From positions 1-64,000 of the forward strand of contig JAHEAD010000007.1 in the NCBI GenBank assembly GCA_019721075.1: DNA of 64,000 bases. Reading direction: 5' to 3'. The translations under genes and the position numbers were made by a program. Shown in pieces: positions 13,123 to 52,774 of this stretch; position 1 is the first letter of the stretch; the number at the start of each line of letters is the position of its first letter. Source of the stretch: Candidatus Sysuiplasma jiujiangense (lineage in GTDB: Archaea; Thermoplasmatota; Thermoplasmata; Sysuiplasmatales; Sysuiplasmataceae). A model generated the notes under the pieces. The model was given only the letters and a program-made list of their open reading frames with translations, searched no databases and had not been told where the DNA came from.

Positions 13123-15813
13123 TCAACCGTAAATCTTGGTCAACTCGCGGAATACCTGATCCAAATGTTTCAGACATAGTTCTTGGTCGGTTTTCCCATA
13201 CTTTGATAGATGTTCCGTCCTACCGCGTACGACGTTCCCTCTTGCGCTCCTAATCCATATCAAGCTATTAAGAGAGTCCATCCAGATGTGTTTAGACTTT
13301 AGGCATTCAAGTAATTTCCCAGTCACAAGTTGAGCGTGTTCAGCTCGCAATCTCCCTGAGCCAGTGACATATCTCTTCACACCATATTTGTCTTCGTAGA
13401 ACCACTCTTCTTTCTTCACGATAAGCGCATCAACATCAGTATTTCCTAACTTGCATAATATTGCAAACATCAGATTTTCAACACAGTCCCATGCCATAGA
13501 TATTATCTGGAATGGAGGCGCAGTGGACCGTCTCAAACTTATGTAAATTTCCCTTGCATTTTCGTAAAAGATTATGTCTGGACCCAGGAGTAAAGGACTC
13601 TTGAATCTTACCTCAAGATCATCATCCTTCGACTCGGGTGGGGTTGGATTGGTGGAATAGTAAGTCACAAAGTCCCTCACGGAGTAATTGTCCTTCCTCA
13701 ACCCTTTGAAGAGAGATTTCAACCCTTTGTTAGCAGCATAAACTGAGGAGCCATTGCTTAGCATAAGACTTCGATTCGCGATATACTTTAGTGGAGTAAT
13801 AAAGGAGGGTTGAACTTTGTCGGCAGGCAGACCACGCTCCACGAGTTCAATAAGGTAGTTCCATCCTTCTGCTGCATTCATTCCGCGTCTTTCCATCTCC
13901 AAGTAGTAGTGGTAGATGGATATCATGCCATCCCTAGCTTCAGAGTCAACGAGCACTAGTCTGTCAATGGATTTTCCAATGGCGTTGTCAAAATCTCTCT
14001 GGTATTGTTCGATGATAAAGTCCTTGGAAATCACGGTCTGCTTTTTTTGAGCTCCGTATCTGCAAATGGCTTCCGCAAGAATGAGTGCTTGCCGTGGATT
14101 GCCACCACTAAGCGTTCTAAACAAAGATGAGCAGCCTTGTGCGAACACTTTATCATAAGAGGATCCTGAGCTAATTAGTCGTCTTTCCAACAGGTTTTGT
14201 ACATCCTGAGTACTAAATGGAGACAGCTCCCATGCGTTTCGATAGCCCACGTATGAGAGTTCACTTGAACTTAGAAACTGACCCCACCTCTCTGCACATG
14301 CGAACACAACAATAGAAACCTCCCGCAATCTCGAAAGCAGATATTGCGAGCTTTTAAAGAAATCGACAACTAGTGGGTCTTTATCACTTGGCAACCTGTC
14401 AAGACTATCAACACAAATGATCTTCTTATTGCCGAGACGGACTGCCTCGACTATTCTCTCCGAGTCGATATCTTCACCTTTCCCTGTAACTCCTCTGTAT
14501 ATCGATTTGCAGACTATGTTGTAGATATCTGCTGAAGTCCTGACGTTCGAAATTCTGTCGGCGACGTCAGTCATGATCACGTCATACCTAGAATCAAATC
14601 TGCTCTTGATGCTTTGAAACAGTGTTGTCTTACCAAATCCTCTTCCTGCTATCAAGAGTTTTAACTCGCCGTTATTCCCACGCAGATAACCGCCAACTTC
14701 GCTTAAGATCGTTTTTGAAGAGGGTGTTTCAACGAATCTATCTGACCCAAAAGCCATTGGAATATCTATGAAAGGATTTCCGATGAATTTCCAATAAGAC
14801 ATCCAGTCATCGCCTTCGATGATGTCGGCATCCGAAGATGGAATGCTCTCAACTCTCTTGGGTGCGGCGGTAGTCAACCTTGGCCTGATAATATCGAGAA
14901 CACTTTCTGGAAGACCCTGCTTAACTGAGGATAGGGCCGAATCCGTAGTCTGTAGCTTTCGAGGGAAATGCAGTTTTATGTTATTATCCCATAATGCATC
15001 TTCAACGATTCCTAATTCCCTGCCAAGTTTTCCTAACAAATTCTCGGAGAGATATGAAATTACGGGTCCGCTTATTGAATCTGGATACGAAGCACAGATT
15101 CGAACTGAGCCGTTTTCGATAGTCACAGCATCGATGTAGTAGCAGTTGAGCCAATGAAGTATGGATTCAGGAGAAAGCCCATACTGACCTATCTTGCTCA
15201 TATCAACTCTCCTGAAGCTACAATCGAGTTCATCTGAAATCCTGAGCAAACCGGTAAGAACGCCAATGCGAACGTTGCCCTCGCCAAGAGGAGAATTTTC
15301 GTGGGGATCAAACTCAACGGACGATTGGTGCCGCTCACAGAGTGTAGCTACAAAGGGCAAATATCGACGAACACCACCATCGCTCAAACCTACCTCAAGA
15401 ATGTTGTCATTTCCCTTGGCAATTTCCCTGACTAGATATCCTGAAGCTTTCCCGTGAGATGCCCTTATTACCGCGTATTCGTCATTAGTGAGTTCATCTA
15501 CAGGCATATTGATACCATGGGCCCGGGGGACTTGCATTCCGACGTCATGAAACAAGACGGCTAATGCAAATATAAACAGCTCATCTTTAGTCAGTGATTT
15601 GGTGTCATTATTGGCCAAATTTTGGCCCAACAATCGATGAGCCACTGAAATGATGCGATCACAATGTGAAATTGAATGATCGGTGAAATTTGGCAGTAGA
15701 TTGTTATTAAGTATCTTAGTGAGTTTGTAGCGAACCTGCTTCATGGTTTGAAATTGGAAAAAGTGCAAATGATCCTCAAGCCAATTCCAATTATCAGGTT
15801 CTTCCTCCTGCAT
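13123..15813 (-). CDS. HD-CE phosphohydrolase + P-loop AAA+/STAND-like ATPase + C-terminal HEPN-like helical domain
   Basis: FTDHSISHCDR, LFHDVGM, IRASH, CERH, LRISDELD, LHW; GNPF, GRGFGKTT, ICVDSLD, SGGNPRQ; AWDCVENLM...WIRSARGNVVRG. Confidence 0.8.
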   Translation of the reverse strand: MQEEEPDNWNWLEDHLHFFQFQTMKQVRYKLTKILNNNLLPNFTDHSISHCDRIISVAHRLLGQNLANNDTKSLTKDELFIFALAVLFHDVGMQVPRAHGINMPVDELTNDEYAVIRASHGKASGYLVREIAKGNDNILEVGLSDGGVRRYLPFVATLCERHQSSVEFDPHENSPLGEGNVRIGVLTGLLRISDELDCSFRRVDMSKIGQYGLSPESILHWLNCYYIDAVTIENGSVRICASYPDSISGPVISYLSENLLGKLGRELGIVEDALWDNNIKLHFPRKLQTTDSALSSVKQGLPESVLDIIRPRLTTAAPKRVESIPSSDADIIEGDDWMSYWKFIGNPFIDIPMAFGSDRFVETPSSKTILSEVGGYLRGNNGELKLLIAGRGFGKTTLFQSIKSRFDSRYDVIMTDVADRISNVRTSADIYNIVCKSIYRGVTGKGEDIDSERIVEAVRLGNKKIICVDSLDRLPSDKDPLVVDFFKSSQYLLSRLREVSIVVFACAERWGQFLSSSELSYVGYRNAWELSPFSTQDVQNLLERRLISSGSSYDKVFAQGCSSLFRTLSGGNPRQALILAEAICRYGAQKKQTVISKDFIIEQYQRDFDNAIGKSIDRLVLVDSEARDGMISIYHYYLEMERRGMNAAEGWNYLIELVERGLPADKVQPSFITPLKYIANRSLMLSNGSSVYAANKGLKSLFKGLRKDNYSVRDFVTYYSTNPTPPESKDDDLEVRFKSPLLLGPDIIFYENAREIYISLRRSTAPPFQIISMAWDCVENLMFAILCKLGNTDVDALIVKKEEWFYEDKYGVKRYVTGSGRLRAEHAQLVTGKLLECLKSKHIWMDSLNSLIWIRSARGNVVRGRTEHLSKYGKTDQELCLKHLDQVFRELTKIYG

Positions 15814-23134: not shown

Positions 23135-25525
23135 GTGAAACCTCTGTTGTCAGTGTTTTGTGTTGCATTGCTGCTGGTCGCATTCGGTACTGCGTTGGGC
23201 ACGGTCCACACCGGGCCGGATAAAGCGTTTACCGGTAAAAGTGCGGCAGCGCCATTGAATTCGGCTCTTCCCCTGCAGCCGCGGAGCACGGATCAAAGGG
23301 CGGCAAATATTCTGAATGAATTGAGATCCAGGCATGTTCCTGTTAATTATGCTCTCCTGCCCAATTTCAATGCCAGGGTCTCGATTACAAAGGGAACGGT
23401 TTCTCCCCTTTACACCTCTTCTCCGGCTCCGATGGGGATCGGTGATTTCGGCCTGATTAACACAAGCTCAGGCATTGTTGGTTATAACACCACGACTTCG
23501 AGCATAGAAGGAACCATAGCATTCAAAGGGCTCCAGCCCTTTTATCTGCTGAATGATGCGCCTCAGACGGTCACTGTTCAGCTCAATGCTGTACTGGACA
23601 ATGTAACCCTGTTCGGTGTTCCTGCGTACAGCTTCTGGACACAGAATGTCTTTTTTTACTCGCAGAGAACGCACACGCTGACCTTCCTTGACAACATATG
23701 GAACTTTTCGAGCCCTGCCTTTGATTTCACGCAGAACAGTCTGTACAAACACAACGGAACCATAGTAGCACCTGTGTTTTATTTTGATGTGGGACCAACG
23801 ATAAGCGTTGGCTATCCTTTCACCGTCAATCTCTATCTGAACTCCACCGTGCTTCAGGACAGGACGGCCGTGTTCTTCAACTACTCCATCTCTTCCCCTA
23901 CCCTGCATTCCACGAAAAGCGGATCTTATGACGAGGTGCTTTTCAATTCAACTTCCCCCGGTATTTCCACGCCAACAATGCCGGCACCCTATCTGATTAG
24001 CGGCACCACAGTCACGCCGACCGGGTATCTGCTCTATGATGCCGAGCTCATGATAGGCGGACCCGGAGGCGGCAGCACAACATCAATTTACAGCATAAAT
24101 GGCACAATGCGGCTGCAGTACCTGAATTCAACAACCGGAGTCTACAACAATGTGCAGTCCGCATTTGACTTCGGGACGGACACCGGTGAGACATCCGAGG
24201 GTGTTGCAGTCTACTGGACTCAAAATGCAGTGGCCCACCTGACAGCAGGGCCGTCCCTGCTCTACGGTATGTGGAATTTGTCCTCTGGCTCACAGGCCGG
24301 AGCGGACATCATGATAAGCGGCACTGTCAGTCCGTCCAATGCATTTCTCTTTGTGAGCGGCGGAAGCTCATTCAACAACACATCGGCCGCATGGGCGCCT
24401 GTGCTTCCGAACGGCATGTTCAACTTCAGCCTCCCTCAGGGAGTGTATTCCGGTGCGGTCCTGATGAGCAACTATGAGCCGGAGTACAATTTGCAGATGG
24501 GACCGGATATGACTGTAATGCTCACGGCCAACGCCTCGGAGGGAGTGTATACACCCCTGTTTGCATTTAACAATATGCAGCTTGCGAACCTTTCCAGCAG
24601 CGGCAATGGCACTATGAAGAGCCCGTACAATATCACTGCGACTGTGATAAACCCGATAAACCAGCTGTTCGGCGAACTGAATGACTTCTTCTTCCCGGTA
24701 TTCCCTGGAGTAATGCTGGTCAACACATCATCCTATGCAGTGCTGATGGGCCTGCCCTCCTTCTATATACAGTATCCGGTTTCACAGCAGTTTGCACTCG
24801 AATTCTTCGGATTCCCGATATGGAATTACATGCCTTTTGAGACGTACGGCGCTTCGAATGTGAGCATAGTCGGATCGCCATTCATTAGCGGCTGGTACCC
24901 AGTGTTCCTGTACGGTTTCCCTCTTGCGAATCTCATCGTATGGAACTCAAGCAGCGTGCTCATCGCCGGAAACTACTTCTCAAGCATGGGCAGTTCAGCG
25001 CTGATATTCAACAGCACCGATGTGCTTGTATGGGGCAATGTATTTGCAGAAAACAGCCTCGCGGGTATTTCGGTTACTCACCCGACCCGTTACTTCGAAT
25101 TCGAGCTGGCACCCATATATCCTGCCACGGTTCCGACCGGTCTCAGCGTCTTCTCATCCGGCGATACAATTTACAACAATGCGTTCATTGTCGATCTTCC
25201 GGCGATCAGCCCCGACTTCAACATATACACATTCGCCGGCGCGACTTATATGGACGCATGGAATGTGTCATTCCAGCTTGTCAAGAATGCAATGCCGTAC
25301 ACGTTCAATGGAATTGCAATTCCGCCAGTGAGTATTACGGGCGGCTCATACCTGGGCGGTAACTTCTGGTACAACTATCACCCGCGCAGCACACTGAAAC
25401 TTCCATTCAACGACAACGGCTGGATCGCGAACGGAGGGGACTATGTCCCGCTTGTCCTTGGAAGTTCCCAGTCAAGCAGCTACAACAGTGTCCTTCAGCC
25501 GCTTGATCCTGGCATCAGCGCATAG
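23135..25525 (+). CDS. Thermopsin-family (A5) protease with signal peptide and C-terminal beta-helix region
   Basis: Hydrophobic N-terminus; PAPMGIGDFG, QLNAVL, FWTQNV, DNIWNFS, DAELMIGGPGGG, FDFGTDTGETS; IYNNAF, GGNFWYNY, GGDYVPL. Confidence 0.9.
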   Translation: MKPLLSVFCVALLLVAFGTALGTVHTGPDKAFTGKSAAAPLNSALPLQPRSTDQRAANILNELRSRHVPVNYALLPNFNARVSITKGTVSPLYTSSPAPMGIGDFGLINTSSGIVGYNTTTSSIEGTIAFKGLQPFYLLNDAPQTVTVQLNAVLDNVTLFGVPAYSFWTQNVFFYSQRTHTLTFLDNIWNFSSPAFDFTQNSLYKHNGTIVAPVFYFDVGPTISVGYPFTVNLYLNSTVLQDRTAVFFNYSISSPTLHSTKSGSYDEVLFNSTSPGISTPTMPAPYLISGTTVTPTGYLLYDAELMIGGPGGGSTTSIYSINGTMRLQYLNSTTGVYNNVQSAFDFGTDTGETSEGVAVYWTQNAVAHLTAGPSLLYGMWNLSSGSQAGADIMISGTVSPSNAFLFVSGGSSFNNTSAAWAPVLPNGMFNFSLPQGVYSGAVLMSNYEPEYNLQMGPDMTVMLTANASEGVYTPLFAFNNMQLANLSSSGNGTMKSPYNITATVINPINQLFGELNDFFFPVFPGVMLVNTSSYAVLMGLPSFYIQYPVSQQFALEFFGFPIWNYMPFETYGASNVSIVGSPFISGWYPVFLYGFPLANLIVWNSSSVLIAGNYFSSMGSSALIFNSTDVLVWGNVFAENSLAGISVTHPTRYFEFELAPIYPATVPTGLSVFSSGDTIYNNAFIVDLPAISPDFNIYTFAGATYMDAWNVSFQLVKNAMPYTFNGIAIPPVSITGGSYLGGNFWYNYHPRSTLKLPFNDNGWIANGGDYVPLVLGSSQSSSYNSVLQPLDPGISA

Positions 25526-26561: not shown

Positions 26562-27845
26562 CTAACCGGCACCGCAGAGCCTTTCAGTGTTCCTGGAGGC
26601 GATCCTCAGGAGAGCCTGTGTGGTTGGTGATGCCGGATACGATGCCTGAGACAGCAGATTTGACGGATTAAAGGCGTATCCCGTGAATTTCTTCCCGCTG
26701 CCGGACCATAGAACTGTCCCTTCATCGTCCCTGGTTACAGGCTTTCTGAATATCTCCTGAAATGAACTGCCATGGAATACTGCACAGGTCAGGATCTGCG
26801 GCTTCAGGTTTATGGGATCGATGACTACGCCGAGAAAGTAGAGCTGCAGCCTCCCTGTCTTTCTTGCTTCGTCAAGTTCCCTGAATGGTTTGTCTGCGGC
26901 ATAATCGGGTACGGGCCTCGCCTCCTGATCGTGTGTGCCCAGCAGCTCCTCGTCGTACTCCCTCATTATGTTCTTCCAGAGATCAAAGTCTTCAGAGAGT
27001 GCTTCCGCGCCGTCGTTTGTAGGCTGGAACTCGCCTGCGGGTATCACGTGCACCGAACCCTTCCCCTGCGCTACATCGCGTTCGCTGCGCCTGTGCAGCA
27101 CAAATTCAAATCTTCCCCCATTCTCATAAACGGTCAGCGTGTTGATGCCTGCAACTGCGCATCTTGTTCCGAAATTTGCGGGATATCCGGCAGTCTCCCT
27201 GACTTTCATCCTGGGCAATGTCTCCGGCGCTGCCCTGTCGTCATCGTGTTTTACGAAATACCTCGCAATTTCATATGCCAGCACTTCCTCGGTGTCATGG
27301 TGGTCAAAGTACTTTCCCGCGGTAAACCTCAAAGAGAATGAATCATGGTCAGGCTCAACAGAAAGCAGCCTGTAGGCATTCCTGTTGCTGAAGAGCGACG
27401 GCCTGTCCAGTGTTGAAACAGCCTGCGAATACCTGTGGTAATTGTGGAACCAGATTGCCCCCGGTCTGTGCGGGAGCAATTTCGAAGCCTTCTTCAGGAT
27501 ACTGCCGTATTCATTCTGCCTGTCTGCGTTCATCTCGAGTATTATTCTGACCCGCTCGAGTTTCATAGGGCTGGCAGGCAGCCAATCCCTTTTGAATAGA
27601 ACGGGACCGGTGTATTCGGCACCTTCACCTCCACCGTGGTACATATCCCCCTTCAGGCCGCTGTAGTACCCGAACGCTGCAGTGGCAAGAGTCGTGACCC
27701 TTTCTTCCCTTAGATGTTTCCGGATGTCGATGAACTCATCCCTGCTTCCGGTCAGCCAGCCCCTCAATCCGAAGAAAATTGCCACGGCTGTGACAGCAAT
27801 GCCTATCACAGCCACATAAAGAGCCAGCATACCCTGGGAGTACAA
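26562..27845 (-). CDS. Single-pass membrane protein with a NUDIX-like cytoplasmic domain
   Basis: N-terminal TM helix; FSNRNAYRL, YFDHHDTEEVLAYE, LHRRS, VHVIPAGEFQP, DFDLWKNIMREYDEELLG (degenerate Nudix box); GAGGTG RBS before TTG. Confidence 0.7.
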   Translation of the reverse strand: MYSQGMLALYVAVIGIAVTAVAIFFGLRGWLTGSRDEFIDIRKHLREERVTTLATAAFGYYSGLKGDMYHGGGEGAEYTGPVLFKRDWLPASPMKLERVRIILEMNADRQNEYGSILKKASKLLPHRPGAIWFHNYHRYSQAVSTLDRPSLFSNRNAYRLLSVEPDHDSFSLRFTAGKYFDHHDTEEVLAYEIARYFVKHDDDRAAPETLPRMKVRETAGYPANFGTRCAVAGINTLTVYENGGRFEFVLHRRSERDVAQGKGSVHVIPAGEFQPTNDGAEALSEDFDLWKNIMREYDEELLGTHDQEARPVPDYAADKPFRELDEARKTGRLQLYFLGVVIDPINLKPQILTCAVFHGSSFQEIFRKPVTRDDEGTVLWSGSGKKFTGYAFNPSNLLSQASYPASPTTQALLRIASRNTERLCGAG

Positions 27846-28270: not shown

Positions 28271-28444
28271 TGTCCGAAGTACAGGAGGCACCAGCTTGTT
28301 GACAGCATCAAACAAAAACCGGAAAGCACCATCATGAATGTTGCTACCGAACATGAATGGGACATCCTTGCAATGGAGGTGATGTCGGACCGCGTCCGGC
28401 TGTCTGTCTCCTTGGTTCTAAGGACTTTTCCGCACAGGGTGTGA
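28271..28444 (+). mobile_element. tnpA: IS200/IS605 tnpA (Y1 HUH transposase) remnant
   Basis: CPKYRRHQLV...EHEWDILAMEVMSDRVRLSVS; the HUH motif DHVHL has decayed to DRVRL; too short for the ORF track. Confidence 0.7.
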
Positions 28445-29232
28445 CTAAGACGTTCGAGGGGAGGAGTTAGATAACCGCTCTGAATCATTCACGAAATCAC
28501 AGGGAAACCGGCAAATTTTGATATGCCGGGATTCGGTGCGCCGCGAACTTCGGAATCACGGGCCCACCAGTGAAAACTATTATGAAACTCTCCTCCAAAG
28601 GCAAGAATATCGCGAATGTTTTAAGGAGGCCGGATGACATCCTTCGCAGGGATCCGTAACGGCTCTGAGGACAGACAACGAGGCTTTTACCTGAAGGGCT
28701 GGACTAATGTGGAACAGGAGAAGCTCACATTCATCCCTGGTCAGTCCGGCTGGTTGGGCGCCTATCCGTCAGTGATTCTGATTTGAGTAAGAAGATATCT
28801 GCCAGGCAAACTAGAGAATCGCCTGGCGCCCATCTAATGACAAGAAGGACGCTGGTTTCATTCAGGGGGAAAATGGCCGGAATACAGCGATAATTGAGGA
28901 TCAGGAGCAGCTCCATGGTGAAATTCACGTGCAGCATTTCAGGAGAATTGCCTCGACAAAAAGCACGAGCTATTCCGTGTACTGGCCATACGGGACAAAG
29001 AAAGTTTGCCTTGATATGGAACTGGGTTTCCTATCGGAGCTTCGAATACATGATTACATAAATCTGAGAGTCAAACAAGGGGAGACGGAGCGATGAATTA
29101 AGGCAAAATAACCGCCTTAATTCCAATGGACCGTAGAAGAAACTGTTCACATGACTATTTGTCAAACAGAACAGTGAACAAGTTGTTCATGCAAAAATAA
29201 AAGGGAAATGGTTTGGGGATGGGAGTTGCGGA

Positions 29233-31461
29233 CTACTGTTTCCTGGATGTGAATTTTGCTATCAACACACCTGCACCGAGACCGACGAGCAACGCCACTA
29301 TGGTACCTGCAATAATGAATAACGGACTGACGGATGGCGCCGGTGCCGCTTTTGCTGTCGTTTTTACCTGTGTCGATGGATGAATGAAAGAGACGGTTAT
29401 AAGCGCTGAATTGCCCTGGACGACAACATTCCCTGAAGCAACTGAAATATTGTATCCGGAAACTGCACCTATTGAAAATTGATACGTACCATTCGGAACA
29501 GTAAACGACATGATTGCCGATGTTGTGCTTTGTGACGTTCCATTGAATGTTACAGTCCATGACTGACCGGCTGCAAGACCCGTTTCTTCAAAGGAGACTG
29601 TATATTGGGGCACCACTGTTTTGACTGCGGGATACTGTGAGACATCATAGGTGAGATTCAATGCATTAATAGATCCGATACCTGTCCAGTCATTCCAGCC
29701 ATTGCCCAGATATGTGTTGTCGGAGATGCTTCCACCAGGCTCAAGGTATTCGACTTTGGTATATGCGCTGTAACCGTATGTGCTGTTATACCCGAGGTTG
29801 TAAAGCGTGGGTTGTATCCATCCGAGCGGATATGCGGTTACACCATGACTGTGCGCAAGCATGGATTCCATATCTGCAAAAGTACCGGCTAAGATGGGGG
29901 CAGCAAAGCTCGTTCCTCCCCCGGCATGCCAATTGCCGTTGACTTCAATCGCGAGAGACGATGCTGGAGCTGAAATATCAGGCATGGACCTGTTGGCATA
30001 TGTTGAGGGAACGGTAATCGCTTCACTTGTCTGATATGCGGGTTTGGGATAGAAAAAGCTTGATCCTCCTCCGCTGCCGACGGAAAGCCCGTAAAAAGAT
30101 CCTGATGGGACATACCACGCATACTGCCCGACAATATTTCCGGTCGAATTGAGGACCGGGTATATTCCGCCCACCGCGACAAAGTACGGCGTGTCCTCGC
30201 CTATCAGGTAGTTGATATTGTGGCTATCAGATGAACCTTCAAAATACGTCGTGCCTTCAGCCACCGCCTGAAGACTCATCTGCGTGTAAGACACAGACCA
30301 TGCCGCATCGTGATGATATTGAAATGCACCCCAGCTGCTTGTAATTGTATTGGGGTCTATGACATTCAGCATGTAATATATTTCGAGCCTGACACCGTTG
30401 TCACCGAGACCAGTGAGATTGAATGCCTGCTGTATGTCGTATATGGATGCCCCGGGTGCAATGGCTGCAGACCATTCGAGATCAAGCGACTCTTCGCCAC
30501 CCACCCGTGCGGTATTGAGGCCGTTTGCGGTAAGATTTACAACGTGGACATGCGTCGGATAAATGCCATACGTATGCCAGAATAATTCTTCTGCTGTCAT
30601 ATTAAGACCCTGTCCGACTCCGACTATGCCGATTTTCTGGCCTGTCCCGTTATATCCACTGGACAACAGAGGCGATATCTGGTAGAACTGTTCCAGATTT
30701 GCCGGCGTCAGCATGCTCTGGGATGCATTCGGGGACCCGGTATTGTCCTGCATCTGGTACAGCCCGCCTCCGACCGCACTCTTGGTGAGCAATACTTCTG
30801 ATGCGTAACTGAGTCCGTGCACATTGACGATGTCATGGGAAAAGATGAACGGCACACTGGGGCTCTCATTGTTGGTAATGAATATCGAGCTCAACTTCTG
30901 GTAGGTATAACTGTTTTCCGTTGGTAGTGTAGTGTTGTAATCATACAATGTTATGCCGAATGCCTTATCGATTGTTGTTATGTTTGCCTGTAGTATTACT
31001 ACAAGCGGTGCATATGGATATGACCACACCTTGAATCCCTCTGAACTGTAATACGATTTTATTGCCGAAACCGTGGCGTTGGAAGGATAAAATTCAGCAC
31101 GAAATTGAGAGGGTGTCAGATAATGATGATAGAGAGCATTGCCTGGCGTATTCAATTCATTCACTAGAATGTAAAGATATGTCAGATTTGTAAGGGCCAG
31201 ATAGAGTGTCACGTTCAAAACAGTACTGCCGTTTGCCGGTCCCATATTGGTAAAAAAACTGCTGAACTGCGGATTGGATATGAGATAAGGCACGTTGCCG
31301 GTCAGCGGTACGAGCCGATATGGATTCGGCCGGATCACCGACACCGATGACGTCGCGTTCTGTCTTTTTACCAATCCCGCTGTCCCCATCATTATGGCGA
31401 AGCCTGTGATAATCACCAGCGCTGCCACAATGAATGCTGCCACCTTTCTGTGTGCTTTCAT
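29233..31461 (-). CDS. S53 (sedolisin/kumamolisin) protease with prodomain and C-terminal membrane anchor
   Basis: Prodomain YHHYLTPSQFRAEFYP; EESLDLEW...APGA; SSDS; RSMPDIS; GGTSFAAP; GWNDWTGIGS; ETGL..W.V repeat and C-terminal TM; GGAGTG RBS before ATG 31461. Confidence 0.9.
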   Translation of the reverse strand: MKAHRKVAAFIVAALVIITGFAIMMGTAGLVKRQNATSSVSVIRPNPYRLVPLTGNVPYLISNPQFSSFFTNMGPANGSTVLNVTLYLALTNLTYLYILVNELNTPGNALYHHYLTPSQFRAEFYPSNATVSAIKSYYSSEGFKVWSYPYAPLVVILQANITTIDKAFGITLYDYNTTLPTENSYTYQKLSSIFITNNESPSVPFIFSHDIVNVHGLSYASEVLLTKSAVGGGLYQMQDNTGSPNASQSMLTPANLEQFYQISPLLSSGYNGTGQKIGIVGVGQGLNMTAEELFWHTYGIYPTHVHVVNLTANGLNTARVGGEESLDLEWSAAIAPGASIYDIQQAFNLTGLGDNGVRLEIYYMLNVIDPNTITSSWGAFQYHHDAAWSVSYTQMSLQAVAEGTTYFEGSSDSHNINYLIGEDTPYFVAVGGIYPVLNSTGNIVGQYAWYVPSGSFYGLSVGSGGGSSFFYPKPAYQTSEAITVPSTYANRSMPDISAPASSLAIEVNGNWHAGGGTSFAAPILAGTFADMESMLAHSHGVTAYPLGWIQPTLYNLGYNSTYGYSAYTKVEYLEPGGSISDNTYLGNGWNDWTGIGSINALNLTYDVSQYPAVKTVVPQYTVSFEETGLAAGQSWTVTFNGTSQSTTSAIMSFTVPNGTYQFSIGAVSGYNISVASGNVVVQGNSALITVSFIHPSTQVKTTAKAAPAPSVSPLFIIAGTIVALLVGLGAGVLIAKFTSRKQ

Positions 31462-31511: not shown

Positions 31512-34500
31512 TCAAAATGTGTAGACAAAGTCTACAGTTATTGTCCCGAAATAGTCAGGTCCCGGCGGATTGTTGCTTACCGCTTCGAGTACGTGCTGGT
31601 ATCCAGACTCAAGGACCAGCCTTCCATCCTGCGAGCCGTAGACAAGCGATGTGTATGTCTTCAGTGTGGTGCCCTTTATTGCCGTGATTGATGAGATAAT
31701 GCCGGCGACAGGGCTGGTAAGCTCGATGACGCCTGCAAAGAGATCGCCGCTTGTGTAGAGACTGTTGGAAACGGATGTTTCCGTCCTTGTTATGCCGTTA
31801 GCCGTTACGTTTGTGTAAAAGTGTGAAACATCGAAAGCCTCTGACATGTTGTTGAGGTACTGCGCGAACGGGCCATACATTGGGAAGCCGCCGTTTGTTG
31901 TCTGCGTGATTGTGAATACAAAACCGGTCTGCATCTCTATGGGGAAATAAGTCGTCTTTGCATTGATGAAAATATCATGCATCCCCTGCTCGTTGTAAAC
32001 TGTGACCATTCTGGATTGCGTCAGCTGATATCCTGTGAGGTTTTCCCACACAGGGCCTACCACATACTGGTCCATGGATGAAACTTCGCTTGTTCTCTTC
32101 GAGACTGTTATCGTTCCTGTCACTGTATGTATTGATGATGAGAAGCCAAAGTTGTTAATGACGTTCTCGTAAAAGAAGGAGTTCACCGATGCTGTGCCGC
32201 CTGAAGGCAGCGGGACATTTGTGACTATCCGCGGCTTGCCCATATTTGCAAAGTAGCTTACAGGCTGCGCACCGGTTACAGCTGGGTTTGTGTAAATAAG
32301 CAGATTTGCACTGACCATCCAGTTGGCAGCATACGGAAACACGCCTGTCATGTTGAACTCCATGTTGCCAGAGTTTTCAATAATGCCCAGTGCGGCCGTG
32401 ACGTTCACATTTGTTGGCACTTCAGAAAGGTCATACGGTGCCGGTAGAGGTCTCCATGCGAACAGGTCAATGCCGCCGGTGTTGACGAGATACCACGGCA
32501 GTACGTTGGCTATGAGCTTGTTTCCGGAGTAAACTGTTACTGCTCTGTAGGAGGGTTCGTCGCCGTACCAGAACTCGTCAAAGGTGTTACCGCGCTGGAA
32601 AACCTGGAGCGTTGCAGCAGCAGTATCGGATGGTACTGAAACTGGCACCGTTACCTCTGGATGCCCATAGGTAAGACTCGCCCTGGTGACGAGCGGAACG
32701 ACCATATTGGGAATGCCTGCCGGTTTAGAGCCCGGATAAAAGCTCAATGTCGCGTTTGTGTAATACGAACCGTTCACCGCGCCATTCGGGCTGTGCCATA
32801 TCAGATTTACACTCCCATGGAAGAGCGATTCATATTCTGTGAGGTTGGCGACTATTGTCCAGTTTCCGTTTTCAGGCTGGACGCTGTGCCACACGAGAAC
32901 GTTGTTAACGATCAGAAATTCGACAACATCGTAAACAGTTCCATATGCCTGGCCGTTGTATGTAAGGATGATACTCTGGAAGGATTCGTTCGGTACCTGG
33001 ATAGTTGTATACAGTGTTGTGTTCGGTGTCAAACTTCCGACTGTTTTCAGATCATGGACAAGTGTATAATTGATCGGTGCTATATCCGGGATTCGTGTAG
33101 GCTGCCTGACCTGTATTGTTGTATTCGGCGGCAAGTTCAGGGGGACATAATCCCCGCCAGTGCCTATGAGACCTCCATCGTTGTAAGGGATGGTACCGTT
33201 GTAATTCCACCAGAGGTTTCCTCCCTGATATGTTCCATGAATGATGCTGCCAGTGAGCGCATAGCCATTTACGTAATTTATCGCACTCGCGGGTTGCTTT
33301 GATATGTTCCATGTGTTGGAGAAGATTCTTGGGCTTTCCGCAGTGAAACTGACAGGCTGAAGAAACATGTTATTATAGACAAGATTGCCGGAAGACCGTA
33401 CCAGTAAACCCGAACCCAGGTCTGTAAACATATTGCTTTCAAACGTGTTTCCCCACACTGTGTTGTCTGTGCCTCCCAGGATTGCGACCGAGCCTCCGTT
33501 CCTGTGCCCGACAAAGGAGTCCACAGCACTTGCATGTAGTCTGTTGCCGCCCACCAACATATTAGAACTGTCGAGCAATATTATGCCATAGGGAAGAAAA
33601 CTATTGGTGAAGTAGCCGCTCACTTCCGATTTCCAGAGTGAGATGTTCGAGTCGGCATAGAACTCATAATTCAGATAATTGTACACAGCCGGCAGAGAAT
33701 CAGCACTGGCCGTCTGTGTGCCGTACATGACTCTTAACAACGGCATTCCGTTCATTTCCACATGTGCAGAAACATTCCAGAAAAATACGCCAGCGAACAC
33801 GGGGAACAACCAGTCGTTAAGCTCATCAAACAGCGGACTTATGGAGGCGACTGAAGAGACGCCGCTAAGCATATATGGGCTCGACAACGATCCGTTGCCG
33901 CCGCTCGCAATATACGCAATCTGGCTGTTGCCAAAAGCGTAAAGCGGCGTGTATATGCCTGCATTCCGGTTTCTTCGCAGATTGAAATTCTTTCCAGCGG
34001 AAATGGTGAAACTCACCGGCCTGTAGTAGCTGAGTAGTATCTGACCGGAAACCTCACCGTAAGGAACATGGAAGTCGTAATTTCCAGAGAGTGGCAGCGG
34101 ATTCCATGCATCGGCCGAAGCGTTGAATGTCGATCCGCCGCTGACAAACATAAATGCGTTTGAAGGAGAAACCCGACCTCCGAACCCGCGCGGCATGGAA
34201 GACGACACGTTCCACATGCCGTACAGCAGCGAAGGACCTTCGTTAAGGAAGGCTGTTGTTCCATTCCACCACACATTGGCGCCGGTGGATGTTTCACCGG
34301 TATCGGTTCCGAAATTGAACGCCGAAGGAACGCTGACAAGTCCAGAGGATGAAGTGTTATAGTACTTCAGTGCCATTGTCGCATTTATGTTGTAGATTGT
34401 TGTGGTGCTTCCTCCACCCGGACCGCCTATCATTATTTCCGCATCGTACAGGAATCCCATGTGCGTGTGAGTCCCTGCGTTAAGCAGTGGAGGTGTAGTC

Positions 34501-35414
34501 ACGGTTCCGCTGATCAGGTAATGCGGTGCCGGAGCGCTGTAACCGGGAGGCATGCCACCCGTTGAATTGAACAGCACTTCATCAAAAGTCCCTGATGATA
34601 TAACACCGGCGTCCATGAGTGTGTAGTTGAAGAACACAGCGCTGTCCCCGTTTATCAGTGATGCGTTTGTGTAAAGATCCACGGTTGCAGGCAGAGCCAC
34701 ACTGAAACTCGGACCCTGAGTTATGTAAACCTCGTTGCCGACGACTCTTCCCTTTCCCTTTGCTATGCCATTTTTCGGGAATGTGCCGGCTGAGGATGAA
34801 AAATTCCATATGTTTAAAACAAATTTGATTCGGTGGAAGTTGTTGCTGTAAACAATCACGTTTTGTGTCCAGTATGTGTAATTCGTTACACCGAAGAGGG
34901 TAACATTTGTAAGAACAGTGTTAAGCTGGATGCTGCCGCTTGTCTGCTGCGCCGACGACATGCTGGATGAGCTGAGATTGTTCACAGTCATTGTCCCTTC
35001 AATACTGCTCGTGGTCAGGTTGTAGCCTACGATGGTACCGTTCTGATTCTTAAGCCCGAAATCACCGATGCCCATCGGTGCGGGAGCAACGGGATAGAGA
35101 GGCTGGACATGTCCGTCATTCATAGTGACAGGCGGATTAAAATTGGGCAGGTAAATATCACTGGTGGGCGTACCTTCAGTTTCCAGGGAATTGAGCAACG
35201 CGTTTACTCTGTCATTGTATCTGTTTTTTGGCACCCTTGTGACATGAGACACAGCGTTTCGCTGATATGTATACTGAGGTAATACAGCGGTTGCGGGATT
35301 CGTTAAAGTTTTTTGAGACGCAACGCTGTTCCATCCACCCAGAACAACACCTGCAGGTAAAACGAACAGCACTGCAATTGCAAAAACTGTATACTTCAAA
35401 ATCGAGTCTTCCAT
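31512..35414 (-). CDS. Secreted thermopsin + beta-helix + peptide:N-glycosidase A (PNGase A-like) fusion
   Basis: Thermopsin motifs (PAPMGIGDFG, YWTQNV, GGPGGG, FGTDTGET); NTVWGN/LVYNN beta-helix; PNGase A motifs YD..., DEFWYGDEPSYR, PWYLVNTGGIDLFAWRP from about 33130 down. Confidence 0.85.
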   Translation of the reverse strand: MEDSILKYTVFAIAVLFVLPAGVVLGGWNSVASQKTLTNPATAVLPQYTYQRNAVSHVTRVPKNRYNDRVNALLNSLETEGTPTSDIYLPNFNPPVTMNDGHVQPLYPVAPAPMGIGDFGLKNQNGTIVGYNLTTSSIEGTMTVNNLSSSSMSSAQQTSGSIQLNTVLTNVTLFGVTNYTYWTQNVIVYSNNFHRIKFVLNIWNFSSSAGTFPKNGIAKGKGRVVGNEVYITQGPSFSVALPATVDLYTNASLINGDSAVFFNYTLMDAGVISSGTFDEVLFNSTGGMPPGYSAPAPHYLISGTVTTPPLLNAGTHTHMGFLYDAEIMIGGPGGGSTTTIYNINATMALKYYNTSSSGLVSVPSAFNFGTDTGETSTGANVWWNGTTAFLNEGPSLLYGMWNVSSSMPRGFGGRVSPSNAFMFVSGGSTFNASADAWNPLPLSGNYDFHVPYGEVSGQILLSYYRPVSFTISAGKNFNLRRNRNAGIYTPLYAFGNSQIAYIASGGNGSLSSPYMLSGVSSVASISPLFDELNDWLFPVFAGVFFWNVSAHVEMNGMPLLRVMYGTQTASADSLPAVYNYLNYEFYADSNISLWKSEVSGYFTNSFLPYGIILLDSSNMLVGGNRLHASAVDSFVGHRNGGSVAILGGTDNTVWGNTFESNMFTDLGSGLLVRSSGNLVYNNMFLQPVSFTAESPRIFSNTWNISKQPASAINYVNGYALTGSIIHGTYQGGNLWWNYNGTIPYNDGGLIGTGGDYVPLNLPPNTTIQVRQPTRIPDIAPINYTLVHDLKTVGSLTPNTTLYTTIQVPNESFQSIILTYNGQAYGTVYDVVEFLIVNNVLVWHSVQPENGNWTIVANLTEYESLFHGSVNLIWHSPNGAVNGSYYTNATLSFYPGSKPAGIPNMVVPLVTRASLTYGHPEVTVPVSVPSDTAAATLQVFQRGNTFDEFWYGDEPSYRAVTVYSGNKLIANVLPWYLVNTGGIDLFAWRPLPAPYDLSEVPTNVNVTAALGIIENSGNMEFNMTGVFPYAANWMVSANLLIYTNPAVTGAQPVSYFANMGKPRIVTNVPLPSGGTASVNSFFYENVINNFGFSSSIHTVTGTITVSKRTSEVSSMDQYVVGPVWENLTGYQLTQSRMVTVYNEQGMHDIFINAKTTYFPIEMQTGFVFTITQTTNGGFPMYGPFAQYLNNMSEAFDVSHFYTNVTANGITRTETSVSNSLYTSGDLFAGVIELTSPVAGIISSITAIKGTTLKTYTSLVYGSQDGRLVLESGYQHVLEAVSNNPPGPDYFGTITVDFVYTF

Positions 35415-35614
35415 TTTTTGTCACACTCTTTTTTTGAACGCTTATCTTTTTATTCTATTTATATGTGGCGTGTCGGCCATAGACCAATAAAGAAATTTGG
35501 TGAGAATGTGGGATATCCACAGCCTTGTTGTCCTTCTATTGGCTCCTGTATGCAGGCATCTGTGTAACCGCTACTTTTCCTTTCTACATTTCCTGGGAAT
35601 TACTTCCTGATGTT

Positions 35615-35960
35615 CTAGTGGCGTGTTTCGAAACTAAGACCCGGATTTCCTGAGACGCCACAACAGCCTCTTCCTCCTTTGCCTCCTGTCCCTTGTATCA
35701 AGCATTTCTTTCCTGTTTTCATTCTTGTACTTGATTGCCTTCTGCAATGCCGCATCCACCTCATTCCATGACCTGAAGTCTGTTCCAGACAGTGCAATCC
35801 TCTGCATGTCGTTGAAATGCGTCTCTATCGGGTTGAGTCATGATGCATTTGTCGGCGTTGGAACAAGTGTAACCCTGTTACACTTTGCCCACTTCACTAT
35901 ATCCTGTGTCCAGTGTGCCGACAGGTTGTCCATTACTATGTGCATGCGCTGCTCCGCTGA
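35615..35960 (-). mobile_element. IS630-family 3' remnant (copy 2)
   Basis: MHIVMDNLSAHW..., PTPTNAS*LNPIETH, ends TRH* inside CTAGTGGCGTGTTTC. Confidence 0.75.
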
Positions 35961-36238
35961 TATATTGAAATGCAGCAGTAGCAGTTATGAAAACAAGCGG
36001 GGTTGCTGAAATGGCGATCACGGCTATTCCAGTTATACCAGTATTGCTACAGTGATTGCGGGGGCGATAACAGCAGGGCGCTGTGCTGAAAGCCGCCTCA
36101 GAGAAAGAACTTCTCTTTCAAGATCATGTATGTTGTGGCCGCATCGACCATGATAGTTACTGCACTTCTCATTATTTCTGATGCTGTGCAACCTGTTGCA
36201 GCAGGACCGGGTTTATCCTGCTTTCATTCCCTTCCAGT

Positions 36239-38981: not shown

Positions 38982-40088
38982 CTACGCGGGTAATCCGTAC
39001 AGAGTGGCAAGGGACTGGAATTCATAGAAGACAGGCTGCCTCAGGTTGTAATTGCTTATTATATCGGTTGAGTTGGTGTTCCATGTGTAGGAGGAGAAGA
39101 AGTCGGTGTAGAAAGGAAGGACCGCGCTTGCATTGATCTTGAGTGCGAAATAATACAGCACCTGCATCCATTCCCTGTCCAGCATAGCCCTCGAGGGATT
39201 GTGTATATACTTGCCGTCGCCGCTCCATGCTTCCGCTATCCACACGGCCTTTCCTCCGTTGCCGTTCTGAGTCAGGAATTTCATTGTGCCATAGAAACCC
39301 TGGGTGTCGTATATGTCGAAACCAATGAAGTCAAGAGAAGGTATCTTCTCCACAAGCTGCAGATAGCGAACCTCGAATGAAACCTTTCCCTGGTAGTAGG
39401 AACTGTTGTAAAGATCATATGCCGCCACTGAAACACCGACAATCGTCTGTGGAGAGACGCTCTTGACAGCGTTGATAAGAGAGACGGTGAGATTGCTCCA
39501 GTCATACGGACTGTGAACAAGCGGGTTGGTAAGGGCATCCGAAATCATGGGGAAATACCAGCCAGGTTCCTTCACAACAATATATGCATAAGGATGATAG
39601 AGACTGGCAAGCGTCCTGACCCTTTGTATCCACTGCTGCTTGAAGTCGGTCCAGTTCAGCTGGCCTCCGCTCCTGTATGTCTCAGATGAGGCATCGGCAA
39701 TTATCAGTGCCTTTCCGGACGACTTGACAAGGTTCACCGCACTTGTAATTTCGCTGATAATGGCCGTGTTGTTGGTTAGCCATGGTCCATAGCCGATGTC
39801 TATGCGTATCGCTGAAACATTGGATGACAGAAGCATTTTTATGTCAGCTGCCTGGACCTGCATTGTGTTGTAACTTTTAATGCCGTAAGAAGACCTGAGC
39901 GCTGTGGCGCCAAAAATCAGAGACCCGTTTGAAGACGGTTTCCAGTTGATGAGTTGCCGGTTCAGCCACTGGGTGGTTATAGACCCTGATCCGGGGCTCC
40001 TGTTCAGTTCCACGAAGGCCACAGAGACAGTTGCGCTCAGGAGTATGGCAAAGGCTGCAACTGCGAAAATGATGCGCCTTCTTCTCAT
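38982..40088 (-). CDS. Membrane-anchored putative clan GH-A-like (TIM-barrel) glycoside hydrolase
   Basis: RRRR + TM N-terminus; AIRIDI, VVKEPGW (NEP-like), DFIGFDIY, VWIAEAW. Confidence 0.6.
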   Translation of the reverse strand: MRRRRIIFAVAAFAILLSATVSVAFVELNRSPGSGSITTQWLNRQLINWKPSSNGSLIFGATALRSSYGIKSYNTMQVQAADIKMLLSSNVSAIRIDIGYGPWLTNNTAIISEITSAVNLVKSSGKALIIADASSETYRSGGQLNWTDFKQQWIQRVRTLASLYHPYAYIVVKEPGWYFPMISDALTNPLVHSPYDWSNLTVSLINAVKSVSPQTIVGVSVAAYDLYNSSYYQGKVSFEVRYLQLVEKIPSLDFIGFDIYDTQGFYGTMKFLTQNGNGGKAVWIAEAWSGDGKYIHNPSRAMLDREWMQVLYYFALKINASAVLPFYTDFFSSYTWNTNSTDIISNYNLRQPVFYEFQSLATLYGLPA

Positions 40089-40695
40089 TCGCACTAAAAC
40101 CGTGGTATGTTTTTAATTAATATATCGTCCAGAAAATCAAAAAAGGACCCGGGTGAGATGCTACGCTTTCCGCAGCTTTACAATATAAACATCAGTATCA
40201 ATGGTGACAATCAGGCACTGGAAGCACAGGTGAAGATGCTCAAGGCGACGAGTATTCCTTCGGGCCCTGGCAACAGGCAATTTACAGAACGATTCCGAAT
40301 TCTCGAGGTTCACACAGATGCCGGAGAGGTTAATGGGAAAACTGCAGCAGGTATTACGGCCCGGCGAGAGTGTGCGGTTTGCACTTAGGGGCATGGGCAT
40401 GTCACATTTCCAGGGAGGAAATTTTGCAGGAAACTTCAGGTCTCCCAGCAGAGGCGACGGGAGTTCGCATGTCGGCCATCCCTGATTACCTATAACAGAC
40501 AGAAGACTGCCTCTCGTTTCCACCGGACTGGTTTCGTTCGAGTCAATGTCCGTCAATGTCCTTTACATGGGACCGGCTCAATTCCATTGAACTCCGGCAG
40601 GACATTATGGACGGCCATGTGATCATAACAGGCATGTCAACCGCAGAAAACCGGACATTCCGGAAGAAGGTGGGACCCCTTACACTGCAGGCAGT

Positions 40696-50583: not shown

Positions 50584-52032
50584 TCAAACCCTGGACAGGG
50601 GACCGGATCCGGTGAGATCAAACGTCTCGGCAACAATTGCATAGCCGATCTGACCTGTGACAGCGCTGAATCCCTGGCTGTAGTAATGAATTGTGTAGGT
50701 AACGTTCAGGTAGAAGAACTGCGAAGTGTTGGAGGCGTTCTGGACGACGAACTGTACCACAGCCTTCACTAAAGCATTCTGTCCGTTAACTGTGACCACA
50801 GGCGGACTTTCGCTGTAGAACCACACAGCACTCCATATGCCGAAGAACCTGTTCCAAACGCCGTTGATTGCAACTGTGCCATTGTAGGTGCCTGAGAGCT
50901 TGCCGCCGATCCAGTGCAGTGTTGCGTTTGATGCATACTGTTGCATCACAGATGTGCTGTTCTCTATCGCTATATTGTTCCAGTGCGTGAATGCCAGGGA
51001 AGTGACGCTGTTCAATTCTGCAGATTCCTGGGCGAGGGAGATGAAGCCGCTCCCTACTATGTGCCAGATTTCGTTGTATATCATCCAGCTGCCTGCGTTT
51101 TCGATGAAATTCAATGTGTAGTTAATTGTCAGGTACTGTACCTGGCTCTGGTTTGAAGAAGGTGTGAGCACAAACTGATTCATTGATGTCACAGTTGCTG
51201 TATTTCCGCTGACACCGACAGCGGGCGGAGATACCGTATAGAACCACACAGCACTCCATATGCCGAAGAACCTGTTCCAAACGCCGTTGATTGCAACTGT
51301 GCCATTGTAGGTGCCCGTGAGAGGGCCGCCGATCCAGTGCAGTGTTGCGTTTGATGCATACTGGTCGGAGAATAGAGAGGCGTTCTCTATTGCTATGGCA
51401 TCCCAGTGGGAGAATGCAGCAGAACTGACAGCGAGATAATTAAGTTCGCTGAACTGTCCCTGAGTGTATGAGAGAGGCCCTGCGCCCTTGATCATCCACT
51501 CTTCAGCATATATGTGCCATTCTGAAGCGTGTTCAATAAAATGCAGCGTGTACGATATATTCAGATAGTTCACCTGCTGAGGCGATGCAGCCGGAGAAGC
51601 GGTGAACTGTATTCTGGCTGAAACCGAGGAAACATTTCCCGTGACAATCACAGACGGCTGTCCCTGGCTCAGGAACCAGATGGATGACCAGCCGGAAAAG
51701 AATTTCTGCCATACACCCTCTATTGATGCCGTGCCCGAATATGTGCCGTTCAGCGGACCACCTATCCAGTCGAGCGTGGCGTTCGAGGTGTACTGACTCA
51801 TCAGTGAGGAAATATCCCTGTCAGAGATGTAGTTCCAGTGATCATAGGAGGATTTGAGAACAACAGCGCCCTGCTGATTCACATAATTCTGCGAAACCGT
51901 GTTCAACGTCTTCTGATAACCTGCAGCCTTTGAATTTGCTGAGTTGAGGGATACAAGCTCAAAGGCAAACGCAGATGCAAATACAATCGACAGCACAACA
52001 AATACCGCAAGTGCAATGCTGATTCCTTTCAT
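50584..52032 (-). CDS. Membrane-anchored protein with three tandem SnoaL/NTF2-like domains
   Basis: N-terminal TM MKGISIALAV...; three repeats of HW..I..E/DN...QY.SNATL.WIGG.L.GTY.G...I.GVW..FF..WS..WF. Confidence 0.8.
   Translation of the reverse strand: MKGISIALAVFVVLSIVFASAFAFELVSLNSANSKAAGYQKTLNTVSQNYVNQQGAVVLKSSYDHWNYISDRDISSLMSQYTSNATLDWIGGPLNGTYSGTASIEGVWQKFFSGWSSIWFLSQGQPSVIVTGNVSSVSARIQFTASPAASPQQVNYLNISYTLHFIEHASEWHIYAEEWMIKGAGPLSYTQGQFSELNYLAVSSAAFSHWDAIAIENASLFSDQYASNATLHWIGGPLTGTYNGTVAINGVWNRFFGIWSAVWFYTVSPPAVGVSGNTATVTSMNQFVLTPSSNQSQVQYLTINYTLNFIENAGSWMIYNEIWHIVGSGFISLAQESAELNSVTSLAFTHWNNIAIENSTSVMQQYASNATLHWIGGKLSGTYNGTVAINGVWNRFFGIWSAVWFYSESPPVVTVNGQNALVKAVVQFVVQNASNTSQFFYLNVTYTIHYYSQGFSAVTGQIGYAIVAETFDLTGSGPLSRV
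50816..51363. repeat. Near-identical 125-bp intragenic repeat (50816-50940 and 51239-51363)
   Basis: 77 bp identical, 9 divergent nt, 39 bp identical; spacing 423 bp (141 codons). Confidence 0.92.
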
Positions 52033-52119
52033 TTCAACCGGTAGAATCAACAGCGGCGCCGTTATTTGAGCGATTTTCGCAATTATTACACAAATCATAT
52101 GCAAATTACGTGCAATTTG

Positions 52120-52774
52120 GGCCTTGCACATAAACTCATGATCTGGCACCCTTTGCGAGCAGCCTGACATTGTGGCATATCTCCCTTGCAGGCACCTCGT
52201 TTCTCCTGCTCACTGGTTTCCTGCACCTGAGCCTCTCACCGAATATCGCCTTCTCCATGTGGTGACGTGTTTCAGCCATGCTCATTCTGTGGTATCTGCT
52301 CCGGAACCTGTTCACGAATCTCATCGAGTAGTATGTCATGCTGTCGAATGCATCGCTGATATTCCGGGGGAGTACTGCATTGCCCTTCGGCCTGAAACAG
52401 GGCTGCAGTCCGGCAGCCCTTGCAGAGTTGCAGCATCTGTGGTTCCAGTAAGCACTGCCGGCCGCCATGGCTGTGGCGGCGGATTGTTCCGGCACCTCAT
52501 TCATGAGCTGATCGAGCTGGGTGCTGTCATGCCATGTGCCTGCTGTCCTTACAGCCAGTGTCATCAGCGAATCTGTGCCGGAGAGCACATGTATCTTGCC
52601 GTAATCCTTCCTCTCTTCCCTGTACCTGCTGCTCCTCCATGAGCCTGAGCCGTGGAGGAGCAGGCCGGATGAGTCAATCGCGATGGTCGACTCCTCCTTC
52701 CATGCACCCTCTGCCGTATGCTCAAGGAGCGATTTCAGCGTACCCTCCATGGAAGGCATCCTGTTGTATGCCGC
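52120..52774 (-). mobile_element. IS5-family element, copy B: 3' part of the transposase plus right end
   Basis: IAIDSSG, WHDS, GSAY, YHRMSMAETRH, FGERLRCRK; IR at 52120-52134. Confidence 0.88.

Follow-up and report, generated by a model that had tools for sequence, protein, structure and literature searches.

PNGaseA-Bif (PNGase Bb) of Bifidobacterium bifidum is a secreted, membrane-anchored and stand-alone member of PF12222, made of two beta-sandwiches and a cradle, with the catalytic pair D107/E236 and glycan contacts at Y106, R108, Y161 and K230; it is active on glycopeptides, weakly active on denatured protein and inactive on native protein (PMC13728245). PNGase H+ and PNGase Rc, acidobacterial acid enzymes of the PNGase A type, are also stand-alone and are directed at chitobiose cores; PNGase H+ is active at pH 2.6, both on glycoproteins and on glycopeptides (PMC4231336). 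Thermopsins (MEROPS A5), among them the S. acidocaldarius enzyme, SsMTP and SsMTP-1, are secreted acid proteases that S. solfataricus overproduces on peptide-rich medium (PMC3842238, PMC3958906). Here we analyse a window of 64,000 nucleotides (nt), positions 1 to 64,000 of contig JAHEAD010000007.1 from the archaeon Candidatus Sysuiplasma jiujiangense, in which a single open reading frame (ORF) of 1300 amino acids (aa) on the minus strand (31512..35414) carries a thermopsin domain, a beta-helix and a PNGase A-fold domain; the plus strand there is riddled with stop codons. We find that the fusion is real, that it belongs to both PF12222 and PF05317 by sequence and fold, and that it is less unique than first thought.

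An earlier note, made from the sequence alone, had proposed this one-frame architecture, and the Pfam matches, the AF2 (AlphaFold) folds and the motif positions (DEFWY from residue 946, TGGID from 979) all bear it out. Pfam places Thermopsin at residues 103-378 (E 5e-58; 197 bits against a cut-off of 25), a match to positions 5-255 of the 256 in the profile. Its PNGaseA match covers residues 798-1046, with E 8.5e-19 and a score of 67.9 bits where the curated cut-off is 25.3, and no beta-helix family was called. NCBIfam has no family for the fusion, for the unfused thermopsin paralogue at 23135 or for the neighbouring S53 sedolisin, and a PDB sequence search with the full protein as a single sequence gave 0 matches. 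The proposed signal peptide corresponds to a hydrophobic N-terminus (hydropathy maximum of 2.34 at residues 9-27), hydropathy found no clear transmembrane (TM) anchor at the C-terminus, and the protein contains 32 N-x-S/T sequons and no cysteine. It resembles thermopsin, SsMTP and SsMTP-1 (PMC3842238, PMC3958906) in its PF05317 span, signal-like N-terminus, many sequons and Q/N/D/E motifs; unlike SsMTP and SsMTP-1, which carry repeats and a membrane anchor, it continues into a beta-helix and then another enzyme. The databases contain a near-identical protein under 'Candidatus Thermoplasmatota archaeon'.

The C-terminal domain is a PF12222 member set apart from the canonical chitobiose PNGases. 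An AF2 model of residues 765-1300, built on 93 sequences, has a predicted local distance difference test (pLDDT) score of 95.1 and a predicted template modelling (TM) score (pTM) of 0.93, and shows an intact PNGase A fold. Foldseek matches it best to 9VLA, a glycopeptide complex of PNGase Bb (E 2.8e-27, TM score 0.75), and next to PNGase F-type enzymes. In the structural search VIA, 9VLA aligns with 477 residues over domain residues 1-536 (Z 35.9, root mean square deviation (rmsd) 2.8), and PNGase F covers only residues 13-282. Because the 9VLA match spans the whole domain and PNGase F only about its first 280 residues, the cradle is present, and the model has the pair of beta-sandwiches, each of eight strands, and the beta-sheet cradle by which the PNGase A superfamily is recognized. 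A profile from the 93 relatives matches 9VLA at 1.1e-95, with 16-17% identity between the fused domain and 9VLA. The 9VLA chain fits the published PNGaseA-Bif numbering with an offset of 20 at every residue checked, and we therefore take it to be the same or a near-identical enzyme. The zebrafish enzyme Ngly2 is PNGase F-like and was not used for comparison (PMC12753239).

The profile alignment maps D107 to D829, E236 to E947, Y106 to Y828, E126 to E848, K230 to R941 and G289/I291, of the GGI motif, to G980/I982, each kept or conservatively replaced. The fusion differs from the bifidobacterial enzyme in sitting behind a protease, in lacking cysteine, in its acidophilic archaeal host and in two of the glycan contacts, R108 and Y161. 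In PNGaseA-Bif, as with R61 of PNGase F, R108 touches both core N-acetylglucosamines (PMC13728245). In the two Thermoplasmataceae groups of thermopsin-PNGase fusions, FUSA and FUSB, the catalytic Asp and Glu are retained in 11/11 and 20/20 proteins, and the position of Arg108 holds Ser in 11/11 FUSA and Asp in 20/20 FUSB; with the Val of the window's fusion, none of the 32 full fusions has the Arg. It is also replaced in free relatives, 14/14 close and 35/35 further ones (49/49), and retained in 23/23 canonical and 16/17 sister-clade proteins, one of the latter named from a Thermoprotei archaeon; these groups were chosen by the analyst from tree and motif, and the catalytic Asp is invariant in all of them. 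Chitobiose cores have been described for Thermoproteota (PMC12153357, PMC11407970), and the T. acidophilum glycan contains heptose and sulfofucose and fits the densities of Cuniculiplasma and Oxyplasma filaments; the literature text examined does not name the sugar that links Thermoplasmatales glycans. The core of the T. acidophilum glycan is not known to contain N-acetylhexosamine. The clade-wide replacement of Arg, together with this difference in glycans, is a correlation among related sequences, from which we infer that the glycan preference has shifted, possibly towards archaeal glycans.

The reading that we favour, with a probability of about 50%, is that the fusion is a likely secreted acid hydrolase of one chain, whose protease half would make glycopeptides and whose amidase half would free their glycans, probably with a preference for a non-chitobiose core. 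After secretion, the thermopsin half would cleave N-glycoproteins in acid and pass short glycopeptides to the amidase, gated by its cradle. There, D829 would activate the attack on the Asn amide and E947 would polarise it; the uptake of peptides and sugars would then provide nutrition from dead acidophile biomass, with the adjacent sedolisin helping. The cradle of the PNGase A family admits short peptides, and a tethered protease would therefore supply its substrate. The order of protease and then deglycosylase had been proposed from a preference of PNGase A enzymes for glycopeptides, and PNGaseA-Bif behaves in this way (PMC13728245). That part of the proposal fits; the joint between the halves, however, also takes sedolisin or immunoglobulin (Ig)-like anchors, and secreting two enzymes together may be as much the use of the fusion as hand-over. 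A complex prediction of residues 100-405 with 775-1300, run without alignments, scored 0.00 and speaks neither for nor against contact between the halves. The fusion frames three questions, namely its glycan specificity, the catalytic type of thermopsin and the benefit of one chain. If the Arg-less clade does free non-chitobiose N-glycans, it would offer a release enzyme for archaeal glycobiology and would show how acidophiles recycle glycoprotein biomass.

The N-terminal half bears on the second question. An AF2 model of residues 60-769 (62 sequences) has a pLDDT of 87.9, and a VIA search with it covered 48,161 chains. Residues ~459-767 match right-handed beta-helices (Z 12-15), and residues 111-402 match HC7 of Bacillus cereus (8PMU; Z 14.3, rmsd 3.8, 215 residues aligned, 7% identity, as one domain of a multidomain model), the next match of the thermopsin domain being 4QHX, a putative sugar hydrolase (Z 12.8). 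The Foldseek search is also headed by HC7 entries (E 6e-6), with a low TM score for the multidomain model. HC7 (8PMU/8PN5) is a di-glutamate mucinase that cleaves O-glycosylated mucins (PMC13003899); it shares 7-9% identity with the thermopsin domain and no profile match, and the thermopsin profile gave 0 matches against PDB sequences. All the invariant positions checked in 61 thermopsin homologues (Q163, N165, Q184, N185, N201, D324, E326 and E374) are kept here; D324, E326 and E374 are invariant in 61/61, and the pepsin-like D371 is found in 40/61. Eight of the nine candidate active-site residues in PMC3842238 (Q109, N111, Q128, D/N129, D144, D228, D257, D302 and E305) are kept, as Q163, N165, Q184, N185, D278, D324, D371 and E374. 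That paper called the thermopsin fold and catalytic residues unknown and judged a glutamic mechanism unlikely, citing pepstatin sensitivity (PMC3842238); SsMTP-1 is pepstatin-insensitive (PMC3958906). Because the domain model resembles HC7, E326 and E374 are invariant, and D371 and the equivalent of Asp144 are not, the thermopsin half is predicted, as a lead, to use two glutamates rather than aspartates. The likeness to HC7 may have consequences for the catalytic class to which all of A5 is assigned, and with the two invariant Glu the mechanism question left by PMC3842238 becomes testable.

A search with residues 765-1300 had returned only 2 proteins and suggested that the fusion was unique, a view overturned by a search with residues 85-765, which gave 486 matches. 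Among the 121 thermopsins examined, the best 120 of these and the fusion itself, a PNGase A domain directly follows the motif GGDYxPL in 34 (two of them partial; the fusion included). At the same joint, 11 of the 120 listed matches carry a sedolisin, and others carry Ig-like or membrane tails. FUSA, FUSB and the thermopsin-sedolisin fusions, such as P0225 of Thermoplasma volcanium, share with the window's protein the same module and the same GGDYxPL joint; its PNGase domain has 32-35% identity to FUSA and 24-28% local identity to FUSB, and the sedolisin is here a separate downstream gene. Literature joining thermopsin and PNGase was not found in a search that covered few subscription journals, nor did a search made partly by title find studies of this fusion or of any archaeal PNGase A; PNGase A-superfamily genes have been reported in 94 archaeal species (PMC13728245). 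The earlier note's view that no such fusion has been characterized agrees with the literature found, but the architecture is that of a Thermoplasmata protein family already in NCBI, where two of its members are named 'peptide-N4-asparagine amidase'.

Trees were built under LG+G4, without a mixture model, from subsets of 61 (8/20 FUSB) and 33 rows for PNGase and of 59 and 31 rows for thermopsin. In the PNGase tree of 61 rows and 534 columns the fusions occupy three separate positions: FUSA forms a clade with support of 100/100; the 8 FUSB rows used form another (99/99), sister to a free protein; and the PNGase of the window's fusion groups with unfused P0027 and P0028 (100/100). Approximately unbiased (AU) tests on this tree rejected the query with FUSA (p 1.8e-5) and all fused domains together (p 0.0019). 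In the thermopsin tree the fusion nests among unfused P0176-P0178 (support 99-100), FUSA and FUSB interleave, and a single clade of PNGase-fused thermopsins was rejected (AU test, p 1.8e-5). On these trees three separate PNGase lineages have been attached to thermopsin, the window's fusion being the third. The deeper placement of its thermopsin clade differs between trees, and de novo fusion and cargo replacement both fit.

Pairs of close relatives locate the exchange. The thermopsin parts of P0230 and P0228 are 91.5% identical and their cargo 28.9%. Two metagenome contigs, L076 with a FUSA-type and L081 with a FUSB-type domain, are 90.5% identical in DNA over bases 1-4108, ending inside the GGDYEPL codons; across L076:1-8833 and L081:1-8422 the cargo is then unalignable and similarity returns at 89% downstream. 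Both come from one metagenome and chimerism is possible for this pair; both types have many independent clusters, and the complete genome of Oxyplasma meridianum (FUSA type) has both flanks in common with L081. Since contigs ~90% identical switch PNGase type exactly at GGDYxPL, the joint appears to be a site of cassette exchange, and allelic exchange at a single joint would be a clear example from nature of domains shuffled again and again. The 26 GTDB loci include 3 fused, 1 split at the joint (O. meridianum) and 1 with a separate thermopsin nearby; the 80 metagenome loci include 6 PNGase-fused and 2 sedolisin-fused; and some PNGase A match occurs in 12/61 genomes, only the fusion's lying in a frame longer than 927 aa. 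The closest unfused thermopsins were not among the loci found by the metagenome scan, where segments reached identities of <=46% at best, except for one 45-residue piece. As a wider and more tentative proposal, which we hold possible but doubtful, the thermopsin-beta-helix, with a di-glutamate site, would be a swappable secreted platform, exchanged at GGDYxPL even between alleles, and the Arg-less PNGase would be the first to release intact non-chitobiose archaeal N-glycans.

Several observations weigh against a protease-amidase that releases archaeal glycans. The equivalent of the chitobiose-reading Arg108 is Val830 by profile alignment, Tyr161 aligns to Gly878, and for D478/Y481/R523 of the cradle, where the alignment is weak, clear counterparts are missing; the site may have no activity on glycans, or its substrate may be a different amide. 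In the protease half, the equivalent of Asp144, one of five candidate aspartates (PMC3842238), is L200, with Asp in 49/61 homologues, and Saci1846, a thermopsin-family protein, has a structural role in anchoring the S-layer (PMC12207459). A second protease or Ig-like tails occur at the same joint, so that pairing, as far as the sequences go, need not mean substrate hand-over. The nearest relatives of each half are unfused, which makes the fusion dispensable, and no orthologue was found in the 3 same-genus genomes searched (78-95% complete). In Oxyplasma meridianum M1, a complete genome, the FUSA-type fusion is split at the joint (L043:6940-6960): a thermopsin of 850 aa ends in a TGA that overlaps the GTG of a PNGase ORF of 544 aa without a signal peptide, the split gene being one base shorter there than its relatives; this cultured strain is one in which the system could be tested. 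The suggestion that archaeal S-layers are the substrate is shaky, as Thermoplasmatales mostly lack one (PMC12448462); their cells do bear a dense coat, probably of glycoprotein (PMC12448462, PMC11349054).

A somewhat unlikely alternative is an ordinary, broad PNGase A/H+-type activity on the chitobiose cores of fungal, algal or Sulfolobales glycoproteins, which would make the protein an acid all-in-one glycoproteomics reagent. The whole fold and the catalytic pair are kept, as is Y828, a basic R941 occupies the K230 position, and PNGase H+, likened to the fusion by description, shows at its low pH the acid-active deglycosylation supposed here (PMC4231336). This activity is harder to reconcile with a Val at the position of Arg108/R61, which is kept in 23/23 canonical homologues, and with the loss of Tyr161. 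The Val makes activity on standard eukaryotic glycans doubtful, and with it the use as an acid-stable glycoproteomics tool foreseen in the earlier note, which is possible yet, given also the change of Tyr161 to Gly, less likely than assumed.

We consider it unlikely that the thermopsin-beta-helix is mainly a carrier, for secretion, stability or display, of plug-in hydrolases, its halves acting independently or its thermopsin being weak or inactive. The variety of cargo at the joint (PNGase of both types, sedolisin, Ig-like or TM tails) would be expected of such a carrier, as would the contrast between thermopsin part and cargo in P0230 and P0228, the absence of the Asp144 equivalent from the fusion's subclade and the structural role of Saci1846 (PMC12207459). 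Yet every checked position invariant in the thermopsin homologues is kept, and the recruitment of PNGase A from three lineages suggests a specific benefit of the pairing.

Quite unlikely, in our estimate, is a C-terminal domain that has the PNGase A fold and is no N-glycanase, serving instead as a peptide Asn/Gln deamidase, as another amidase, or as a module that binds glycopeptides and supplies them to the protease. The clade as a whole has lost several residues that contact the glycan, and the identity to 9VLA is low, as this would predict, but all top structural matches are PNGases, and none of the 32 full fusions has lost either catalytic acid, a pattern not expected if the domain did no more than bind.

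The junction itself is sound. The 90% cluster of the fusion has 21 members, of which 15 are listed, and 13 of the 14 compared span the junction. Twelve of these are nearly full-length and differ at 1-27 positions, and 1 is partial (one of the 13, P0008, may be the window's own source record). A single contig crosses the junction, at flat depth and without joints, in 4/4 sequencing runs from 4 studies, none of them flagged as a possible source of the window; in two of the runs a 6.0-kb contig contains the sedolisin gene and nearly the whole fusion. Strain differences within the gene are synonymous in 14 of 18 listed rows and in 4/4 of those in the PNGase part, small numbers that leave 11 further rows of the table outside the tally. 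It is hardly credible, then, that the fusion is an assembly chimera or a recent, accidental and functionless read-through: decayed insertion sequence (IS)-like pieces lie nearby and no same-genus orthologue was found, but the junction is bridged in every run and in nearly every cluster member, no second signal peptide is seen at the joint, strain differences are mostly synonymous and the architecture arose repeatedly. The labels of the runs in which the DNA occurs are mine drainage, mine tailings, sediment or simply metagenome, and no RNA runs are among those listed. In one cluster member, P0007 (MCL5252726.1), 15 of the 27 differences from P0001 lie in residues 405-572, between the thermopsin domain and the beta-helix, as a locally diverged or exchanged segment.

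Table 1. Coordinates of the fusion gene, its parts and two neighbouring genes in the window
Feature	Position	Strand	Basis or remark
Fusion ORF: thermopsin, small beta-sandwich, beta-helix and PNGase A-fold domain	31512..35414	-	
Hydrophobic N-terminus, residues 1-27, probably a signal peptide	35334..35414	-	hydropathy alone
Thermopsin domain, Pfam 103-378, structural extent to ~402	34209..35108	-	Pfam and model match to HC7 (8PMU)
D324 and E326 (YDAE), invariant in 61/61 thermopsin homologues, candidate catalytic residues	34437..34445	-	
E374 (DTGET), invariant in 61/61, candidate second catalytic Glu	34293..34295	-	
Right-handed parallel beta-helix region, residues ~459-759	33138..34040	-	AF2 model and structural matches
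GGDYVPL, residues 753-759, end of the thermopsin-beta-helix module and apparent cassette junction	33138..33158	-	
PNGase A-fold domain, residues 765-1300: two beta-sandwiches and beta-sheet cradle	31515..33122	-	
Y828-D829-V830, equivalents of PNGaseA-Bif Y106-D107-R108	32925..32933	-	profile alignment
E947 in DEFWY, equivalent of catalytic E236	32574..32576	-	profile alignment
Unfused thermopsin-beta-helix paralogue, 796 aa, ends 23 aa past GGDYVPL	23135..25525	+	
Sedolisin (S53) gene, 742 aa, hydrophobic C-terminus	29233..31461	-	50 nt downstream of the fusion's stop

The unfused paralogue is 41% identical to the fusion over residues 9-761 and 61% identical to a thermopsin of Ca. Sysuiplasma acidicola; its end shortly past the shared motif agrees with the fusion point that had been read from it. 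The sedolisin gene, likely co-transcribed with the fusion, is 46% identical (E 1e-172) to the S53 domain fused behind thermopsin in T. volcanium (P0225) and at most 31% identical to full-domain paralogues in five family genomes. Its leader is homologous to that of the unfused thermopsin P0176, in which a Pro-rich internal stretch is repeated at its own C-terminus. As the likeness to the fused S53 and the P0176-like leader show, thermopsin, PNGase and sedolisin occur in several combinations. In a same-genus genome (L012, G001:C4; compared with the L001 region) a PNGase A-like frame of 914 aa lies directly ahead of another that matches a sedolisin pro-domain. A scan for sigma-70 promoters and terminators was at chance level, the sigma-70 model not covering archaeal promoters.

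Elsewhere in the host genome, an AglB/STT3 match over the cut-off sits in an unusually long 2231-aa open frame (G000:C1 57264-58460, minus strand; L068). The only other PNGase A-like gene of the host (G000:C3, ~34000-35990, plus strand; L014) has FUSB-type motifs and a signal-like N-terminus of its own, and is broken by two frameshifts, as a pseudogene or through assembly error. A third thermopsin paralogue of 1367 aa (G000:C9 38329-42432, plus strand), with a repeat-like tail and a hydrophobic C-terminus, adjoins RNA polymerase subunit genes.

Within the window, a pair of genes for an SNF2-like helicase/PLD protein and a DNA methyltransferase, a ParB-like protein and an unassigned 896-aa protein (1338-7500, minus; 10630-11628, plus; 13123-15813, minus) may form a defence or mobile island, with DISARM/BREX-like matches of the pair all below cut-off. 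Three minus-strand genes (38982-40094, 50584-52170 and 26562-27845) encode hydrophobic N-termini and have no NCBIfam family, those of 370 and 427 aa having no Pfam match either. Decayed IS-like fragments, recognized by eye, lie at 35660-35960, ~28300-28480 and 52136-52759, the first with a 72% identical copy at 12529-12804, and contig ends vary in the flanks of the fusion, with many loose ends at 35612-35617 and 29120.

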